Shown here piece by piece: positions 7,621 to 54,640 of a stretch of DNA of 64,000 nucleotides. The stretch is from Octopus vulgaris (Eukaryota): assembly GCA_951406725.2 (NCBI GenBank), contig OX597819.1, positions 79,670,001-79,734,000 on the forward strand, read 5' to 3'. The position numbers and the translations under genes are program-made. Each line of letters starts with the position of its first letter. The first letter of the stretch is position 1. The notes under the pieces are model-generated. The model did not search any database. It saw only the letters and a list, made by a program, of their open reading frames with translations, and was not told the origin of the DNA.

Positions 7621-8167
7621 GATATTTGATTAAATAGCCACATCACAGCACGTAAAAGAAGCCATAGTTTTACGGAGTTACATTTCTACAGCCATCTGAT
7701 GACACGATAACAGCATAAACTATGTCTGGTGGAGTTTAAATTTCAGTGGCAGGGAAAGGAAAGTGAGTTCAGAATACCTAATTACCAATGGCATGTAACT
7801 AGTAGAGCTCTGAAGTCGTAGTCTTCTGTGGTAGTGGAATAACAGACAGTTCGTCTGTCGATGAAGAGCGCGTCTATCCGCGTGAACTGATGCGAATTGC
7901 AGGACTCAGGGAACATCGACACCGCGAACGCACATTGCGGCCCCGGGATCCTATAGGTCTGCTCGCTTAGCCAGCGGGGTGGCGTCATTTGAAGGCTAAA
8001 ACAATGCGAAGCGCATTGTAGGCAGCAATGTGTAACAACATCTGATAGCCTGGTCGGTCCCGGTGATATACATATATATATAAACATGAGATCGCCATGT
8101 TGATTCGCTAGCTTCTGCACGCATTTTTTTTCTCTCCTTGTTTCTTTCTGTGTTTCTTTTCTGTGTA

Positions 8168-13430: not shown

Positions 13431-13920
13431 TATAGTCATTAAACTCCTTTCTGTCTGCAAAAAGTGATACGCTTGGATGCATACCTACGGACAAACACAT
13501 AAACGCACCCAGGCACTTTATTGTCTCTTAAATAATCTTAATGTCCACTCAAACATTTCATCTTCTATCCACTATTTTCACACATACATACATACATACA
13601 TACATACATACATACATACATACATGCATACATACATACATACATACATACATACATACTTACATGCATGAATACATGCATAATTTCATACACACACACA
13701 CATATATATGTACACATACATATGTAAATTAATGTAAACAGCCATGTTCGCATTGTGTTACCAAAATGGAAAACTGTGTCATTAAATGCGACTAGGGAGT
13801 TTGAACACCTACATTGCTAGAAATAAGAGCTAAAACGGTCTAATGCTGTAGTTAAAGCGCATAACTATATACATATATGCTGTGAGGAATTTTAATTGCC
13901 CAAACACCGATCCAGAATTC

Positions 13921-13970
13921 CTTATACTGACCGAACAGTTTCGGCTATATACGTAACATCATCAGTAAAG
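13921..13970 (-). ncRNA. Degenerate type I hammerhead ribozyme motif
   Basis: Minus strand reads CTTTA-CTGATGA-tGTTAcgtataTAGCc-GAAAC-tgttcg-GTC-AGTATAAG; core boxes are intact, but stem I is out of register and pair 10.1-11.1 is mismatched. Confidence 0.55.
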
Positions 13971-14160
13971 ATCTCTCGGCTGATACCGGGCTTAATTCCC
14001 TCTCAGTATATATGTACTCACCATAAAAAAACGTATGGATAATTTAGCGAATCGCTAATGTGCATACAAAAATTAATATAAACAGCCATGTGCAATATTT
14101 ACAGAAAGGAAAAACTGTAAATGTCACTAAATGCGACGAGGGTGTCAGGACGCGTATATG

Positions 14161-15167: not shown

Positions 15168-15590
15168 GGTGCAATTGCTTAGGCAAAATGTGATGTCTAC
15201 TTTCTGGTTGATTTCTAGTAGTAACTGTTTTTTGCAAATGTAATGTTGTGACGGAGACCAATACTTATGCTTATATCGGCTGTTCCGTAAATCTCAAGGA
15301 GCATTTACGTAATCACCATTATTCCGTTAAATTGAGACTTAAAGCAGCCATAACTTCTCTAGCCACGAAGATTTGGAAACTCAAGGACGTCAATGTTAAT
15401 TTTGATTTGAGTTGGGATATCATTAGGGTCGCTAAACTGTACTCAAACAACACATGCGGGTGCAGGCTTTGCTGCATGGAGCTGTTTGAAATTTTAAAGA
15501 GTTCAAATAATTAAAATGTAATAAACAATAAACTAGACCTTTGTCTTTACTTTATACATAAGGCTGCCCGCACCTTTAAATATTTTAAGG
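15168..15590 (+). pseudogene. Penelope-like (Neptune-type) GIY-YIG endonuclease remnant
   Basis: ORF 15248..15514 YAYIGCSVNLKEHLRNHHYSVK...TSLATKIWKLKD...LSWDII...CRLCCMELFEI; upstream decayed CNC..C.L.G linker. Confidence 0.85.
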
Positions 15591-16830
15591 GCATAAACAT
15601 CCTCTATAATAGGTCCTAACCTAGAGCAAATCTAATTTACTCCCTCTACTGTTGCCCCAGAAGTCGATTGATGTACTTAATCGTTTGAGTCCTTCTAGTC
15701 TCGTTCTTCTTTGCCATTACTTCCTAATCACACTTACTATACTTGCATGGTATGCTATATTGAAGGAACTAACCATTCTATTTGTGGTGTACCCAGCATT
15801 ATGCATTAGCGATAGCGAAAATATCCAACCTAAAAGTAGCAGCCTGTACTCTCTACCCAGTTCTTTTCTAATTTCACTGATACAGTTATTTTGATGCGCA
15901 TGTTAAATAACAGATGGAAGACACTATCCAAACCTCTTACCCGCAACTTTTGTCCGGAGTTGCATTACCTGATTCATACAATGGTGTTTAAATAATATAA
16001 ACGCCACCCATATAACATTCCAAATAGTTAACCATTAGACTACTTCCTACAGCCGGCTTTCTTTGATATCCGATATGGTGTTTCCTCTAACTCGGTACTA
16101 GGGGTAGTTTATTATATAACTCCCTCTTTCTTTGAACTCCTTAATGATACGTAGTGCTCTATTACTAACAGGTTTTTTTCTCTGCAGGCAAACATGTCCT
16201 TATATTCCAAGCGGTCTCTACTAATCCATATAACATATTCGTATCGAAAACAACACCCTACATCTTTCCACTTTACCAGATAAATCAATCGCGCAAAACA
16301 ATAAAATTCGTTAACAGTTAGAACTTATCATTCGATTGCTTCCGTACCCTCCCCCAACGTCTAACCTACATCCACAGAATACCCCTAAATTCTGTGTATC
16401 TCTGCCTTCCTCCCTTTGTTATTTAGCCTTAGCTAGCGAATCCTAAACCACGACTCTATACCTAATTGGCTTTATTTATTCATTTATTTTTCTTCATTTT
16501 AAACTTTTGTGTTCTTTATCCTTTCTTTATTGCTTATCCTTACATTATCTTCGGTCCTCTCCCAGCTACCCAATTCTCTAAGACTAATATAATAAAATAT
16601 CACCTACACCCCATTCTAGCCTACCAAGGAACTAGTCTTGCAGACTCCTATCTCACCTTAAATATCATATTACACCCTTTCACAAATAATATTCTTAACT
16701 TAACCCCGCTCCTTAATGCCTACAACAGCCAACTTTGCTGGTCATTCTCCCATTTCGTAGTTAGGCTCGGCAGACCTCAGCCACGCCCCTGATGTATTCT
16801 TATGAATATTCTCTTGTTTGTAAATTGCAT

Positions 16831-16913
16831 TTCGTCTGATGGTTACGGTTTATATAATGAAGTAATGTTCTCAATCTTCTATTTTAAAATGTGTAAGAAA
16901 CAGCTGTAACGAA
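16831..16913 (+). ncRNA. Type I hammerhead ribozyme motif (variant core CUGAUGG, long stem II insert)
   Basis: Stem I TTCGT(16831-35)/ACGAA(16909-13); CTGATGG; stem II TTAC/GTAA; GAAAC-AGCT-GTA with palindromic stem III. Confidence 0.7.
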
Positions 16914-16946
16914 CTGACAATTGTCCATTGTCTGTTATTATTCATT

Positions 16947-17025
<79 letters not shown>

Positions 17026-17334
17026 TGTATATATACATATATATAAGAAAATGAGATGACAAAAGAATAAACGATTCTCTCATGAATTCGTTAGTTTCGT
17101 TAGTTGTTTCTGTTATAAGAGTCGGTGGAGTCTTATTTGAGTGCGTGAGTAACATCTTATAGCTTCATCGGAGCCTCAAAGAGAAAGTGCAATTTATTAT
17201 GGGAAAACAATTACATTTATACCTATACATACATACATACATACATACATACATACATGCATTTATATATATATATATATGTATATGTATGTATGTATAT
17301 AAATATATATTTATGTATATATGTATATATGTAC

Positions 17335-17366
<32 letters not shown>

Positions 17367-17652
17367 TTCAACAATTGAGGGTAAAATTAATTAATTATTA
17401 ATTAATTTCACCAAGTGTTCAGTATGCAAAGGGACCATTTAAGGCGAATTCAAATTATTACAATATATAAAAGGGCTTAGTAAAATAAATTACTTTGCCG
17501 CATACTGAACTCATTAGAAATAGCAGCTAAAAAACTTTTTTAAAAACCATTTCTAATACTTAAAGAAAATCTCTCTCGTATAGTGTTTGGTCAACTCAAC
17601 TCACGAAAGTTTGGGGGTAAAGACATAAAAAAAATCAAATGCAAAGGTTATT

Positions 17653-17704
17653 TGAGAACGTACGTTTCAAGATTAGTCATCAAGACACTTCTATCATCAG
17701 CTCA
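17653..17704 (-). ncRNA. Type I hammerhead ribozyme
   Basis: Exact reverse complement of 18294-18345. Confidence 0.75.
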
Positions 17705-18293
17705 GAAACTCCATGGTTTGGATTTGAAAACACTGAAAGTGAGAGCATACTCTTTCGGCCTCTCATCGCCTTTGAAGATCTGCTCGTAACTAACAGTGCC
17801 AACAAACTCAAACATGCAAGCGAAGAATTTCTGTCCTCCCCTTTCCACCAGCGTGGGTTAAAATCAACAAACACTCTGCTTATTTCGGTAAAATCCGAAG
17901 CATTAATTAGAGGGAGATTAATTATAATTTCAACAATTGAGGGTAAAATTAATTAATTATTAATTAATTTCACCAAGTGTTCAGTATGCAAAGGGACCGT
18001 TTAAGGCGAATTCAAATTATTACAATATATAAAAGGGCTTAGTAAAATAAATTACTTTGCCGCATACTGAACTCATTAGAAATAGCAGCTAAAAAACTTT
18101 TTTAAAAACCATTTCTAATACTTAAAGAAAATCTCTCTCGTATAGTGTTTGGTCAACTCAACTCACGAAAGTTTGGGGGTAAAGACATAAAAAAATCAAA
18201 TGCAAAGGTTACGAGCAGATCTTCGAAGGCGATGAGAGGCCGAAAGAGTATGCTCTCACTTTCAGTGTTTTCAAATCCAAACCATGGAGTTTC

Positions 18294-18345
18294 TGAGCTG
18301 ATGATAGAAGTGTCTTGATGACTAATCTTGAAACGTACGTTCTCA
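18294..18345 (+). ncRNA. Type I hammerhead ribozyme
   Basis: TGAG-CTGATGA-tAGAagtGTCttgatGACtaaTCTt-GAAAC-GTAC-GTT^CTCA: stem I TGAG/CTCA, canonical core, palindromic AACGTACGTT stem III, U-U at 10.1/11.1. Confidence 0.75.
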
Positions 18346-18527
18346 AATAACCTTTGCATTTGATTTTTTTTATGTCTTTACCCCAAACTTTCGTGAGTTG
18401 AATTGACCAAACACTATACGAGAGAGATTTTCTTTAAGTATTAGAAATGGTTTTTAAAAAAGTTTTTTAGCTGCTATTTCTAATGAGTTCAGTATGCGGC
18501 AAAGTAATTTATTTTACTAAGCCCTTT

Positions 18528-18570
<43 letters not shown>

Positions 18571-21879: not shown

Positions 21880-22720
21880 AATATTGGCTTCATATTTTGG
21901 AACAAGGTCAATAATTTCGGGAGAGACGAATCGATTATATCGGCCCTAGTGCTAAACTGGTACTTATGTTATTAACACCGAAATGATGAAAGGCAAAGCT
22001 GACCTCAGCAGCATTTGGACGCGGGCATAAAGCTGCTAAGTATTTTTCCCGGCGTGCTAACGATTCTCCCAGCCCATCGCCTTCTTTCTATATTAATTTC
22101 AAATTTTGACACAAGGCCAGCAATTTCGGGAGATGGGGTGCATCGATTACATCGACCTCAGTAATTAACTGGTACTTATTTTACCGACGCCGATAAAGAT
22201 AAAGGCAAAGTCGACCTCGGCGGAATTCGAACACAACGTAAAGACAGACGAAATGTCGCTAAGACTTTTGCCCAGCGTGTTAACGATTCTGCCAGCTTGC
22301 CGCTTTATATGCGTTCAAATTTTTTTCTACAATAGGCACCAGGCCTGAAATTTGAGGGATGGGGGCTAATCGATTACATCCACTTCAGAGTTCAACTGGT
22401 GTTTTTTTTTATCGATCCCGAAATAATGAAAGGCAAAGACGACCTCAGTGGAATTTAAACACAGAACATAAAGACAGGCTAAATGCCGCTAAGATTTTTG
22501 CCCGGCGCGTTAACGATTCTGCCAGCTCACCGATTTATATTTATTTAAATATTCTTTTCTACAGTAGATACAAGGCCGGAAATTTTGGAGGGAGGAGGCC
22601 AGTCGATTAGATCGATCCTAGTACGCAACTGGTATTAAATTAATTGTTCACGAAAGGATGAAAGATAAAGTCGACCTCAGCGGAATTTGAACTCAGAACG
22701 TAAAGACAGACGAAATACCA
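21880..22720 (-). mobile_element. Four head-to-tail SINE family B copies
   Basis: Repeated units with aactggtact...gaaaggcaaagtcgacctc..cggaattt; the first three end in taacgattctgccagct and the fourth is truncated. Confidence 0.85.
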
Positions 22721-38940: not shown

Positions 38941-39447
38941 TATCAGGTCGTTTTCCTTGAACCTTTAGCAATTAGATTAGTGTATCACAGATAATGCTTA
39001 TTTATTCACATTGTTTTGGATTAATCATTATCTCGTAGCTTCAAGAGTTCAATGATGTGATTGTATATACATTTAGAATGACATGGTAAAGTAGGTGTGA
39101 GAAGCAAGATGCGGCTGGTTCGAGCATAAATTTCGCTAAAAGACAAAAATTATTATACCGATATCGTGCGGTTTAGCTTCGACAGAGTTACCGCATTTTA
39201 TATTGGTATAGAGCGACACAACCTATGTTTAAGTCCATTTTTTAGTCAAGTGACTAAAGATGGACTGACTCATTGTTATAAAACAAAGAATTGTGAGCGA
39301 TTGGGAGTTTGTGTTGGTAGCAGATTTTTTGTGTTGAGTTGTTGATAACGGAGTGTTTTTATAGTGAGAGCGTTAAATATTTGTTCGTTTATTACTGTTC
39401 GAATAGTTGATATTGTAAATTGTTGTTTTTTTCCCCATTGGGGGAGA

Positions 39448-40845
39448 ATGGAGAAAACGCCAGCGGGTGGCCACAGTTATTCGGCCGCAACTGGAAAAGG
39501 AACAGAAGAGGAAACGTTGGAAATAATTGAAATTGAGGTAGAACCAAGGAAAATGAAGGAATATGAAAGATTACTGGAGAAGGAGGGAGATACGTTGAAG
39601 TTAACGCCGCCTGCAGAACTGACAAGCAATGTAACAAAACGAACAGATGTATTTAAAACCATGAAAATAGCAACGAGAAAGACAGAGATTGCGACTGTGG
39701 AAGAAATTGAAGAGATTTTGAAAAGCATAAAAAAACTTACGACATATATAACAAGAGGAAGGAAGTATGCCACAGTGGAGGAGCGCTTTGCGACAGAGGA
39801 AGAGGCAATTAAGAATGCAACGGAGGCAATAAGATCGGGGGAGTGAGTACTTTTGCCTTCGTACTGTGGCAAACGTGTGGCCAGAGCGCGAGTAGGCAAA
39901 GTACCCCCAGAACTAAAAGAGACATGGCTGATGACAGCCATAATGTTCAACATGAAAGATGAGGCCAAGATACTGAAGGCCACAAGGACAAATAGAATCA
40001 ACTATTGGGGATACGGGATCGAGCTCACTCTCCAGGCAACAATAGAAGATATAAATCGGATTGCTGAGGAGATAGTGCTGCCCGACGACTTGAGATTGAG
40101 AGTAATGGTGGTGGGCAGGCCGCCTGTATGTTTTACATGTGGGGAGAAAGGCCACATGAAGGTGAGGTGCCCACAGAGAGAACAGATGGAGAAACAGGAG
40201 AGTACGGAACAGGTAGTACAGGTGGAGATGGAAGAAGAAACAACGGAGGAGGGATTCACGGTGGTGGAAAGAAAAAGAAGTGGAAGAGTGAGCCCGCCGC
40301 CAGGTAACCAGAAAAAGAAGAAAGAAGAAATGAAAGCTGCGACCAGGAGGAAGGAAGACAAAATGGTGGTGGAGAAAGAAGTGAAAAAGTAACTGGAAAA
40401 GTGTGTGAGAATGAGTTACAGAAGGAGGAAACAGTGTTGAAGACACCGGTTATTTTAGCGAAGGAGAAAGATTCAGGAATGCAGCTGTACGAGGGTGAAA
40501 TGGAGAAACTTTTCAGATTGGAGATAGAAAAGGAAAAAGTACATGAAGTGGAAGTAGAAAAGAGAAAACCAAGAAAAGGAAAAAAATAAATGGAACTTCG
40601 CAACACATGCAAAAAACAAAGAGACGGAAAGAAAAATTGTGAAATTTAAGCCTATCATAAGGGTAAGGTTAGCCACGGTTATGTATTCCGAAAATGTGAA
40701 GGCCATTGTGATCGACAAAGACACATACAAGAGACTGAGAGACATGTGCGGAGACAAGATTGACCCGCCCGGAGTGTTGGTGGAGTTCGACGAACTGCCA
40801 CCCGTAGCTGAACTCAGAGACGTGGAGCCGTTCATGAGGTATTAA
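39448..40845 (+). pseudogene. LINE ORF1/gag-like protein with CCHC zinc knuckle, disrupted
   Basis: ATG 39448, in-frame TGA 39844, CFTCGEKGHMKVRC, FTVVERKR motif and E/K-rich tail, further stop and frameshift; no ORF2 follows. Confidence 0.8.
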
Positions 40846-43097: not shown

Positions 43098-43520
43098 TAG
43101 GCGGCGAGCTGGCAGAAACGTTAGCACGTCGGGCAAAATGCTTAGCGGTATTTCGTCTGCCGTTACGTTGTGAGTTCAAATTCCGCCGAGGTCGACTTTA
43201 CCTTTCATTCTTTCGGGGTCGATAAATTAAGTACCAGTTACGCACTGGGGTCGATGTAATCGACTTAATACCTATGTCTGTCCTTGTTTTTCCCTTCTAT
43301 GTTTAGCCCCTTGTGGGTAATAAAGAAATAGGTATTTCGTCTGCCGTTACGGTGTGAGTTCAAATTCCGCCGAGGTCGACTTTACCTTTCATCCTTTCGG
43401 GATCGATAAAGTAAGTACCAGCTACGCACTGGTGTCGATGTAATCGACTTAATACCTTTGTCTGTCCTTGATTGTCCTCTCTATGTTTAGCCCCTTGTGG
43501 GTAATAAAAAAATAGGTATT
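43098..43520 (+). mobile_element. SINE family B with a 184-bp internal tandem duplication
   Basis: Head aggcggcgagctggcagaaacgttag, B-box-like gagttcaaattcc; units 43147-43330 and 43331-43514, plus GGTATT start of a third. Confidence 0.9.
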
Positions 43521-50697: not shown

Positions 50698-51958
50698 TAA
50701 ATTCATTTATTAGCCACAAGGACTCACATGCAATAACATTACTATGACACAGACATAAAAGACAACACAGAACGATACAATGGGTTTTACGGCGTGTAAA
50801 CAATATGTAACAATAAAAAAATCTAAAAAAAATTAAAACTCACAATAGGGAAGGCGCTTTAAGGTCCTTGTGGAAAAAGCCGCAGGTGCCTGATCAACAG
50901 AGCAAGAGTCCTTCTTTGATTCCCTTTATTACAGAATTGGTCCTTTCACACTGGCCATTCTTCCAACATTCACCCACCTTCCAACAAACTAGAAGGCAAC
51001 ACTTTCCTCTTTACCCTCAACTCCCTTTGCAAATGAAACTTGAAAAAGTTGATGAGGGCTTGGCCAAGGTGGAAAGTGTCTGACTTTAGCCCTTTCAGAC
51101 GAGTCCACCATACTACCTCTTTCGCTACAACCATCAGACAAATAAAACTTGCTTGCTTCTCCCGGTCAAAGGAGGGAAGCGAAGCAATCTTCACAATGGA
51201 TTCAGCTGATAGCCGGATCCGTTCTATACATGACAGTAGGTGTTCGACATAAGCCCGCAGATCAGCAATACTCGGACACTGGACAAAGGCGTGTAGAATG
51301 GTCTCATCGTTCTGCGCACACCTCAGGCAGGCCCGGTTGAAGACACTTCCGTGCCTGTAAAGTTTATCTCGAGCAGGCAGCGCCCCTCGGTAGCACTGCC
51401 AGGCAAGGGATTTCTGGAAGTTATCCATAGGCCCAGGCCCGAAAGTTCTCCACAACAGACCAGTTAGTTGATCTTCAGCGTCGTCCAGATTTTCCCCGAG
51501 AACGTCGTCGCACTTTCCCTCCACTAGCCCTTTATAGAACGCCAGAGTGGAACTACCACCGATCGATGTCATTACCCGCCTGGCAGGGGGCTGTGAGCGC
51601 TTGACGCCACTCGAGGTGCCAAGCGCACCAGCTTGGTCAACCAGCAAACGGGGCAAGGAACGACGGTCAAGCGGTAATAGCTGACGGATATGATGTACGT
51701 GTCCGCCACCGGCGCCTGATCTTTCAGTGAAAGCTATCTCTCGGCCTATTTCCGAGTTAGATTGGCTACCATGCTCGTCACCTTGTCTCAGTTTTTCTCC
51801 ACCTGGAGGTCTGTACCAAACAAGATTCCGAGGAATTTAACAGGACTGTCTGTCCGGAGCCCAATGATGCTGTTGGACGGCATAGACTTGCTTCTCCAGG
51901 AGCCGAGTTGCAAGCTCACTGACTTTTCCGCGTTAATTTTTGCTCCTGTCACCGCTTC

Positions 51959-51960
<2 letters not shown>
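50698..51960 (-). mobile_element. 5'-truncated L1/Tx1-clade LINE (ORF2 RT C-terminus and zinc finger, 3' UTR)
   Basis: YEAVTGAKINAEKS...VKFLGILFG and LAWQCYRGALPARDKL...CLRCAQNDETILHAFVQCP; ends AATAAA before (TTA)n. Confidence 0.9.
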
Positions 51961-52042
<82 letters not shown>

Positions 52043-52044
<2 letters not shown>

Positions 52045-53050
52045 CACCATAGGACTGCAAAAATATCTACTTCAGAAGGAAGGAAAACTGATCCAGATAG
52101 CGGCAAAACACGAGCAAAACAAAAAACTGTTCTCAGTATTTAAGGAAGCTGACAAATACAAACAAGAAATCATACCACCTAATAAACATGAAGAAGAAGA
52201 AGAAGATGAAGAAACAACAAAAGCTATAAAACAAATGAAATCCAAACTAAAAATAGAACAGCAACGAACCATGATAAAACGATGGCAAGAAAAGCCCCTT
52301 CATGGTAAATACAGCACTAAACTAAACGCAAAAGAAATAGACAAAGAAAAATCCCAGCAATGGTTGAGAAGCTCAGAACTCAAAGCAGAAACAGAGGGAT
52401 TTTTAATTGCAGCACAAGACCAAAGCCTCCCCACCAGAAATTACCAAAAACATGTAATGAAAAGAAATATTACAAGTAACTGCAGAATATGTGGAGATGG
52501 ACAAGAAACAATAAATCATATTATCTCTAGCTGCCCAGTCTTGGCTAAGAAGGAATATATTCACAGACATGACAGAGTTGGAACCTACATACATTGGAAG
52601 CTATGCCAACATTATGGAATAACAACAGAAAAAAGATGGTATAGGCACACACCAGAAAAGGTCACAGAAAACGAGAAAGCAACCATAATCTGGGATATGC
52701 CGATACACACAGATAGAGAAATTAAGGCCAACAGACCAGATATAGTTGTCAGAGATCATGAAGAAAAAAAATGCTTTCTAATTGATGTATCAATACCGGC
52801 TGATGACAACGTGTCTCTAAAAGAAATGGAGAAACTCTCAAAATACAAAGACCTGGAAATAGAGGTAACTAGAATGTGGAATCTGAAAACAGAAACAATT
52901 CCTATCATAGTAGGTGCATTAGGCATGATAAAAAAATATTCAGACAAATACATAACAAAAACACCAGGACTTACAAACACATATAACATACAGAAAATTG
53001 CACTACTAGGCACTGCACACATCCTACGCAGAACACTTTCCATACAATAA
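52043..53050 (+). CDS. C-terminal part of an RLE non-LTR retrotransposon ORF (R4/Dong/HERO-type): CCHC finger and PD-(D/E)xK endonuclease; 5'-truncated but uninterrupted
   Basis: AAQDQSLPTR, CRICGDGQETINHIISSC, RHD, NRPDIV, LIDVSIP, EKLSKYKDL; 3' UTR to about 53147, then (AAT)n. Confidence 0.93.
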
Positions 53051-53186
53051 CCATCAGAGCATCACAACAAATCACAGCACATACCCAAGGCACACAGAGC
53101 TGTGCTCGGTAGTGAAGTGAAAGCACGCTATAAAAATAAAACTACTGAATAATAATAATAATAATAACAATAATAATAATAATAAC

Positions 53187-53236
<50 letters not shown>

Positions 53237-53249
53237 TGATGATGACGAC

Positions 53250-53291
<42 letters not shown>

Positions 53292-53299
53292 AATGATGA

Positions 53300-54640
53300 T
53301 GAAGGGGAAAGCAGGGTATTCTGGAGTGGGATCTGGGACAAACCTGTAAAGCATAATGATGAAGCGGAGTGGTTGCATGAAATCCAAGACAGGTTAATAA
53401 ATATAGAAAGCTAAGATTACATAAAAATAATTACAGAAATTATAAAAAAGCAGTTATGAAATTTCCCAAATTGGAAGAGCCCAGACCCGGATGGGGCCCA
53501 GGGTTATTAGATGAAGAAGCTGAAAGGGCTGCATGAAGGGATACCGCAACAGCTAGATGAATGCTTACAGGAAGGCGCAGTTCTCAGCTGGATGACAATG
53601 GGAAAGATATATGTTGTGTGTTAAGGATCCTGAAAAAGGAAATATTGCATCCAACTTTAGAGCAATAACACACCTTCCACTAATGTGGAAGCTAATGTCA
53701 GGTGCTCTGGCCGTTGAACTATATAGATGCTTGGAAAAAAAGTGGGCTACTAAATATTGAAAAGAAAGGGTGTCGAAAGACGAGCTGGGGTATGAAGGGC
53801 TAGCTCTTATTTGATAATCTAATTATCAGGAAGAGCAAGGGAAGACACACAAACTTGAGCATGGCATAGGTTGGCTATCGTAGAGCATACAATATAATAC
53901 CACACTCCTGGATAATAAGAACAACGGAAATGTATGGAATAGCAAGAAAATATAAGAAGCCTTATATGGAACAGCCTGAAGTGCTGGAGAACGGAATTGA
54001 CAGCGGGGGATCAAGTATTAGGAGAGGTGAAAATCAAGAGACGATTCTTGCTGGGAATGATCCCTTTGGGTGAAATACTACAGAAAACAAAGTTTGGGTA
54101 TGATCTGGAAAGAGGTAAGAGGAAACTGAACCACTTGCTATTCATGGACGACCTGAAGCTATTCACAAAATCTGCGGCAGAACTGGACAGCCCAGTCCAG
54201 TCAGTGCAGATTTTCCTCACTGATATTAAGATGGAGTTTGATCTCTCAAAATGTGCTACGATGGTGATGAGTCGACAAGGAAAGCTTGTCAGGGCAGAAG
54301 GTATGTGGTTGCCAAGTGATGAAATGATGAAAGTAATTCAACCTCAATCTATAAATACCTGGGAACACATGAGGCGGATAGAATCAAGCATAACAACATG
54401 AAGAAAAAGACAAGAAGAGAGTGCCCGCGGAGAGTGAGAAAAATATTATCTTCAAAGCTGAATGCCAGAAACATAATTTCGGTAGTATACTTGCGTGGAG
54501 TTGCAGTAGTTCAGTGGACAGAGAAGAAGCTAAAGGGGATGGACAGGAAATCAAGAAAGCTACTAACGATACATGGAGCCCATCATCCATGTGCAGACGC
54601 TGATTGCCTATACATGAAGAGAGCAAATGGAGGATAGATT
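53300..54640 (+). pseudogene. Older decayed reverse transcriptase region of an RLE-type LINE
   Basis: PNWKSPDPDG, NFRAIT.LPLMWKL, LNHLLFMDDLKLF, MEFDLSKCA and LYMKRANGG motifs with many stops. Confidence 0.88.

Follow-up and report, generated by a model that had tools for sequence, protein, structure and literature searches.

We identified, in a 64-kb window of Octopus vulgaris DNA (contig OX597819.1; "the window" is the whole 64,000-nt stretch analysed), a 562-nt unit that is likely to be a non-autonomous, retrozyme-like Penelope-like retroelement (PLE); the RT and GIY-YIG endonuclease of an autonomous partner are predicted to carry out its copying into (TA)n tracts. We have good confidence that the locus is a young insertion of an abundant, structured, hammerhead-bearing non-autonomous PLE. 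The first-pass annotation had already proposed an element of this class, and the proposal is supported by the PLE-type layout of the insertion, a multicopy family, head-to-tail joints in all four sequencing runs surveyed and a conserved RNA fold.

Anatomy of the insertion

The locus consists of a complete unit, a partial direct copy and a partial inverted copy, set between simple-sequence tracts:

17224-17364, no strand: left (TA)n/(TACA)n target tract (TRF array 17224-17366)
17365-17926, sense on the minus strand: full monomer, 562 nt, non-coding, GC 0.34 (BLASTN and global alignment)
17365-17461, minus strand: 97-nt putative tail, at the left end only, bounded by the two positions at which RT is inferred to start, 17365 and 17462 (the latter being where the inverted arm ends; compare the PLE tail described in PMC11167929)
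17927-18211, minus strand: 5'-truncated pLTR-like tandem copy of unit positions 1-286, 285 nt (BLASTN and global alignment)
18208-18211, no strand: 4-nt microhomology, GTTA, at the inversion joint (overlap of the tandem and inverted copies)
18208-18535, plus strand: inverted 5'-truncated copy of unit positions 426 to 98 (17462-17790), 328 nt, without a tail (BLASTN and global alignment)
18536-18570, no strand: right (TA)n target tract (TRF array 18528-18570)

The arrangement noted at first pass, namely a 562-bp unit with a direct repeat of about 285 bp and an inverted copy, was confirmed in its coordinates by BLASTN and global alignments, as were the (TA)n flanks by the two TRF arrays. The copies are almost identical, as had been claimed, with five differences over the 613 nt aligned between the unit and its two partial copies: the direct copy carries one substitution and one A-run indel, and the inverted copy two substitutions and one G-run indel relative to 17462-17790 (global alignments). 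A BLASTN search with the unit found no further copies in the window. The insertion junctions have just 1-2 nt in common with the (TA)n target, and priming by long (TA)n microhomology was rejected on this ground. No TSD was discernible at this (TA)n-flanked insertion, and the 562-nt unit contains no TIRs.

The unit had also been described as non-coding, and we found nothing to contradict this. Its longest ORF (105 aa, ATG start, 17639-17956 on the plus strand) runs antisense to the ribozyme and spans the tandem junction, and a frame of this length was reached in 9 of 1000 shuffles. It has no Pfam match and no homologue among proteins of near length, and shows no coding constraint; we rejected it as a gene, as the listed family variants comprise 20 non-synonymous against 4 synonymous changes, together with minority frameshift indels. 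An RT or GIY-YIG ORF is absent from the unit.

PLE insertions are reported to target microsatellites and to combine a partial tandem with a neighbouring inverted copy that is 5'-truncated and, at one end, a tail of 30-40 bp; most copies are 5'-truncated (PMC8557442). Five of the six PLE features tested were found at the locus. The copy at 17927-18211 corresponds to the partial tandem (pLTR) and that at 18208-18535 to the inverted 5'-truncated copy; a one-sided tail is present, but at this single locus measures 97 nt against the published 30-40 bp; (TA)n on both sides of this locus provides the microsatellite or AT-rich target; and the hammerhead lies at the pLTR, the pLTR-like copy beginning 6-10 nt 3' of the predicted cut. 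The unit lacks the RT plus GIY-YIG ORF that characterizes an autonomous PLE.

Family, RNA fold and hammerhead motif

The unit was found, at least in part, in 20 of 24 listed sequencing runs, these coming from nine studies with four organism labels, and none of the runs being recorded as RNA. The family was surveyed in four of the 24 (X1, X2, X4 and X13, under three organism labels), using contigs only and a likeness of 80%. This yielded 3948, 29, 556 and 2379 unit-matching contigs, respectively, with all 30 bins of the unit covered, and the head-to-tail joint 17926 to 17365 in each of the four runs, so that the unit is multicopy rather than single-copy. Summed contig depth does not equal copy number; individual variant contigs, however, reached depths of 1234-1434 against 25-60 for others, and the family is therefore both abundant and diverse. 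In X2, which is an RNA run by guess and not on record, the head-to-tail joint had a depth of 82.9. X13 contained one opposite-strand joint, together with a contig of 630 nt that is about 84-85% alike and has a period of 561.

Near-exact matches to the window variant were present in X2 (227 nt, one difference) and in X4 (176 nt with one difference and 109 nt with none), the latter carrying a different organism label. At 17 of its 562 sites, the copy in the window does not carry the allele that forms the majority in both X1 and X13; X1 is possibly the window's own source and does not count as independent support. The earlier description of the element as young holds for the insertion and its subfamily (five differences in 613 nt), but the family as a whole is older and diverse, as those 17 sites indicate. 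Depth drops toward 17897-17926 in X1 and X4. A deletion variant at 17680-17773, in which 94-96 nt are skipped and the hammerhead loses its 5' half and the rod some of its apex, was seen in two of the four runs (X2 and X4).

The sense unit folds with an MFE of -155.6 kcal/mol (z=-5.6), and the predicted structure includes:

17568-17925, minus strand: rod-like fold with the hammerhead as a side arm, predicted (whole-unit MFE and helix list)
17380-17412, minus strand: AU-rich terminal hairpin of 15 bp (pair probability 0.97; the variant at 17403 keeps its pair)
17417-17510, minus strand: 11-bp long-range helix enclosing a loop with the second end site, 17462 (p=1.00; the variant at 17417 keeps its pair)
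17512-17558, minus strand: hairpin of 13+7 bp (p=0.97 and 0.81; the variants at 17546 and 17548 keep pairing)

Natural variants tend to spare the pairs of the predicted fold of the unit RNA. Among the 40 substitutions listed (of 45), 21 are unpaired, 11 keep their pair, one is compensated by a partner allele and seven break a pair, compared with 15.6±2.5 pair breaks by random placement on the sense fold (P about 0.0007-0.002). The alleles at 17427 and 17500 (42% and 49% of X1 depth, unphased) would swap a G-C for an A-U pair. With the 17 majority alleles introduced together the fold reached -157.5 against -155.6 kcal/mol, a stability equalled in 1 of 150 random placements; in this test as in that of the pair breaks, the alleles were unphased and the structure was that predicted from one copy. 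The antisense strand behaves likewise (z=-6.6; variants spare pairs with P=0.004; 5 of 150 random placements), and the choice of strand therefore rests mainly on the ribozyme. We rejected the idea that the rod hides the ribozyme, as the predicted fold puts it on a side arm. Sense A/G transitions outnumber C/U transitions 19 to 9 among the family variants (P=0.024), and the window lineage differs from the majority by six A-to-G and one U-to-C changes (P=0.033). This excess is possibly an imprint of A-to-I editing, or plain tolerance of G-U pairs.

Two matches to a type I hammerhead descriptor lie at the locus:

17646-17712, minus strand: type I hammerhead arm (descriptor; core 17700-17694 and 17668-17657)
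18286-18352, plus strand: second hammerhead, in the inverted arm, core from 18298 (descriptor)

In the minus-strand motif, a 4-bp helix I is followed by CUGAUGA (17700-17694), an extra U, a helix II of 3+3 bp and GAAA (17668-17665), with the predicted cut GUU^C between 17657 and 17656. The conserved core (C3-A9, G12-A15.1, U16.1 and H17) is canonical at every position (CUGAUGA / GAAA / U-U) and the 10 nt of the helix III region form a perfect palindrome, in agreement with the first-pass annotation. Helix III of the monomer is predicted to have 2 bp with a GUAC loop; a two-copy self-duplex of the palindrome gives -11.6 kcal/mol. Only 11 of 5000 dinucleotide shuffles of the unit matched the descriptor. 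An Rfam search, which had been suggested as a check, found no hammerhead family in the unit, either at gathering score or at E≤10. PLE hammerheads are described as having an additional nucleotide after A9 and a helix III that is palindromic, with stress laid on the G10.1-C11.1 pair (PMC4209133). This pair, which closes helix II, is absent here: helix II opens with U/A opposite U, the best register being AGA/UCU. The active fold of the arm is also 6.3 kcal/mol weaker than the alternative (-2.7 against -9.0). Given this difference in predicted stability, the absent pair and the lack of an Rfam match, the hammerhead is likely to be a weak cutter that would depend on a dimer or on protein. The direct tandem supplies just one complete hammerhead at the locus.

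As to conservation of the core across copies, raised in the earlier annotation, none of the 40 listed substitutions (of 45) falls in the 19-nt core, a result that by itself does not reach significance (P=0.25). Outside loop II, the 54-nt arm likewise contains none of the 40 listed substitutions (45 in all; P about 0.02, post hoc), and in our own reading of the family table the loose-end variants in helices I and II remain pairable. A second hammerhead-like motif, at 17741-17775, was rejected; it is without a CUGA core and lies among the most variable parts of the family. A core-pattern scan of metagenomes returned 76 loci, four of which passed the helix filter and two of which were convincing hammerheads (L013 and L047). 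None of the 76 was similar to the unit at E≤0.01, and a metagenome scan with a 21-nt pattern from the unit gave no matches. L013 (1377-1424, plus strand) and L047 (154-201, minus strand) are well-formed type I hammerheads on AT-rich metagenome contigs and are otherwise unrelated to the unit; both share its palindromic helix III and GUU site, and this variant therefore recurs in nature.

Copy ends and a proposed route of insertion

Two family alleles missing from the full direct copy are found in the inverted arm. At the equivalent of 17595 the arm has T, which makes up 86% of X1 depth and is the majority allele of the family, against C in the two direct copies; at the equivalent of 17773 it has C (58% of X1 depth), where the full direct copy has T, and 17773C also occurs in near-identical contigs of X2 and X4. 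Judged by these alleles, the arm is likely to derive from a second RNA rather than from a fold-back, and the "fold-back" form assigned at first pass is probably wrong. Taken as a circle, the sense unit contains U[AG]UAAU at two places only, which are the two copy ends, 97 nt apart (AU^URUAAU); a random pair of sites matches the end motif as well in 0.4% of cases over all sites and in 4% among AU-rich sites. The tandem copy breaks off 6-10 nt before it would reach the predicted cleavage site, an outcome with a chance of about 2% if ends are uniform (within 10 nt), and one X1 joint lies at 17653. Both the end-motif and the cut-site coincidence come from one locus and were noticed post hoc.

Work with purified PLE protein provides a context for these ends: the protein cuts AT-rich DNA and extends both strands, and its RT begins at two sites inside the RNA, these delimiting the tail, with no need of target homology (PMC11167929). 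In the one PLE tested there (PAc, Frangieh et al. 2024), the hammerhead cleaved only when protein was present, cleavage could be dispensed with, and none of the reads had its end at the cut site (PMC11167929).

For the unit, a comparable route may be proposed. The minus strand would be transcribed as a structured RNA longer than one unit, either tandem or circular, and the RT and GIY-YIG endonuclease of an autonomous partner would cut both strands of a (TA)n tract. A cDNA would then be primed on each cut strand, starting internally at either of the two AU^URUAAU sites 97 nt apart. On one strand, 848 nt would be copied from site 1, through one uncut or religated hammerhead, the cDNA halting just before the next cleavage site, probably at the 5' end of a self-cleaved template; as this cDNA crossed one hammerhead site, that site must have been uncut, religated or bridged. 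On the other strand, 328 nt would be copied from site 2 on a different RNA of the family, and the two cDNAs would be joined via the 4-nt microhomology. The hammerhead would trim or circularize templates only occasionally.

Competing readings and related elements

The strongest rival, which we regard as possible though doubtful, is that of a true circular-RNA retrozyme, in which the dimer self-cleaves and is ligated to a 562-nt circle, around which the RT rolls 1.5 times. It differs from our best explanation solely in making the circle the obligatory template. The predicted rod joins both sides of the cut, holding them together in the cut-to-cut monomer (-153.6) and in the circle (-150.5) alike; both direct copies share all subfamily alleles over 286 nt; the head-to-tail joint is deep in the run guessed to be RNA; and mussel retrozymes form abundant circles (PMC7229834), as has also been proposed for PLEs (PMC4209133). 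Against this, contigs cannot separate a circle from a tandem and none of the listed runs is recorded as RNA, the locus has a single complete direct hammerhead of weak appearance, and the 562-nt monomer exceeds the ~170-400 nt given for invertebrate retrozymes.

The metazoan non-LTR retrozymes (Cervera & de la Pena 2020, PMC7229834; Li, Clavereau & Pollet) nonetheless provide a close comparison. As described there, they are non-coding, low in GC and self-paired, with one type I hammerhead per monomer, head-to-tail joints, a high copy number and PLE co-occurrence, all as in the unit, which at a GC of 0.34 lies below the 45% limit and whose fold (z=-5.6) is spared by variants. Its size, above the invertebrate range, falls inside the 51-972 bp given in bioRxiv 2026.07.22.740005. 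In contrast, the locus amounts to a 1.5-mer to which an inverted arm and a tail on one side are added, all within (TA)n, whereas retrozyme arrays have at least two complete hammerheads, and its hammerhead is of the weak PLE type, unlike that of non-LTR retrozymes. Because two or more successive units bearing complete hammerheads (bioRxiv 2026.07.22.740005) are not present at this locus, we did not file the element as a non-LTR retrozyme. Retrozymes have been argued to be PLE derivatives (bioRxiv 10.64898/2026.07.22.740005), the claim that they are PLE passengers having so far been based on co-occurrence and sequence similarity (bioRxiv 2026.07.22.740005). In Xenopus, eight of nine retrozyme dimers are reported as uncleaved (bioRxiv 2026.07.22.740005).

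A bolder version, which we think unlikely, is that of a viroid-like, rod-folded circular RNA parasite, grown to a very large number of copies, that would hijack the telomerase-related PLE RT via the helix-enclosed AU^URUAAU loop, with two RNAs per insertion and an A-to-I imprint. Were it true, the unit would offer a minimal natural template on which to dissect how PLEs initiate and how tails and inversions arise, and would show directly that PLEs use retrozyme circles as substrates.

It is improbable that the unit is no more than a locally rearranged pLTR, the 3' terminal part of a long autonomous PLE. 5' truncation is usual in PLE copies (PMC8557442), and the fall in depth at 17897-17926 in X1 and X4 indicates that many copies end or diverge before the full unit. 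The unit nevertheless closes on itself at 562 nt in four of four runs, a diverged relative keeps a period of 561, the predicted rod requires both halves of the unit, and a coding remnant was not found. Little probability attaches, too, to the inverted arm being a fold-back by template switch onto the nascent cDNA, or an assembly or library chimera. Such an origin would suit the 4-nt microhomology, and the joints listed for the four runs do not include that of the locus-specific inversion, contigs showing presence rather than absence; however, a fold-back would have copied the direct-copy alleles instead of the family alleles seen at 17595 and 17773, and the arm ends at the sole other URUAAU motif in an arrangement standard for PLEs. 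A satellite or DNA-transposon-type repeat (Helitron/MITE) with a chance hammerhead, for which the AT-rich terminal hairpin (17380-17412) and the lack of a hammerhead in Rfam might speak, is very improbable in view of the rarity of the descriptor in shuffles, the absence of TIRs, the sparing of the 54-nt arm and the pairable loose-end variants.

A non-autonomous, hammerhead-bearing PLE thus stands as the preferred reading, and close parallels are found in the EN+ PLEs (Penelope/Poseidon and Neptune, Craig et al. 2021, PMC8557442; PAc, PMC11167929). As far as described there, these have the same pLTR, inverted copy, tail at one end and AT-rich/(TA)n target, and in their hammerheads, too, A9 is followed by an extra nucleotide and helix III is palindromic. 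The unit differs in being without an RT/GIY-YIG ORF and a G10.1-C11.1 pair, in its tail of 97 as opposed to 30-40 nt, and in ending at an AU-rich motif where PAc ends at an AC-rich stem-loop. Non-autonomous Chlamys PLEs such as MRC1 (PMC8557442) are likewise described as non-coding PLE passengers with pLTRs and head-to-tail insertions; unlike the unit, they are algal, mostly hammerhead-less and target (CA)n/(C)n. Their 3' ends are in common with known autonomous families.

The type of element is already known, the link between retrozymes and PLEs having been argued before and non-autonomous PLEs such as MRC1 described. Judging from listings, we found no published description of this family in Octopus or other cephalopods; the PMC13282606 library, Dfam or Repbase may contain it. 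The former source reports 31 recently active PLE families in Octopus vulgaris, and no ribozyme analysis of them appears in the portion of PMC13282606 available to us. If the unit is a parasite copied by a PLE enzyme, it would support the view that animal retrozymes move by the PLE route, and it bears on how PLEs make tandem, inverted and tailed insertions and on the role of their hammerhead (PMC8557442, PMC11167929). A short, abundant, non-coding family with the whole PLE signature puts such questions within reach of genome data alone: RT start sites and the ribozyme cut would be mapped by where copy ends accumulate, and phasing of alleles would reveal whether the arms represent two RNAs. An RNA of this rod-like kind, if abundant and transcribed, would moreover provide the host with much double-stranded RNA.

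A candidate partner type is represented 2 kb from the unit:

15212-15511, plus strand: degraded C-terminal GIY-YIG endonuclease of an autonomous-type PLE, given as context (HMMER protein search)

The HMMER search with this relic matched 772 proteins at E≤0.001 (best 5.5e-15), unlike a word-index protein search, which gave no match. Pfam GIY-YIG was present in 2 of 12 matched proteins scanned, below the curated cut-off, and in our own reading the longer matches resemble RT-linker-EN proteins. We take these matches to be "Neptune-like", as we have labelled them. GIY-YIG PLEs hence exist in this genome. The hammerhead arm was not significantly similar to any of three nearby hammerhead-like relics (13.9, 16.8 and 17.1 kb; 341, 758 and 128 of 1000 shuffles), nor was the 3' half of the unit to the 13.8-kb relic (48 of 300 shuffles), only relics of the window being compared.

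The region 13.7-18.7 kb looks like a cluster of PLE-type insertions. A degraded PLE 3' end (15212-16948, plus strand) has a GIY-YIG-like frame, a long AT-rich trailer and a decayed hammerhead-like motif near 16836, and ends at the (TA)n of 16949. At 13726-14152 (minus strand), a repeat adjoining (TA)n contains a hammerhead-like core at 13965 with intact CUGAUGA/GAAAC, weakly similar to the 16836 motif (45 of 1000 shuffles), and a short segment between (TA)n tracts (17046-17223, minus strand) has a decayed hammerhead-like core with a long helix II. Elsewhere in the window, which is rich in microsatellites, 7849-7973 (plus strand) is an isolated degenerate 5.8S rRNA-like sequence (Rfam, 50 bits). 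Non-LTR retrotransposon fragments lie at 51923-54637, 50970-51836 and 39349-40392, comprising zf-RVT-bearing frames (R2/R4-like and L1/Tx1-like by our own reading) and a zinc-knuckle ORF1-like frame, and SINE-like tandem repeats with periods of 232 and 184 (TRF) occupy 22142-22716 and 43147-43520, respectively.
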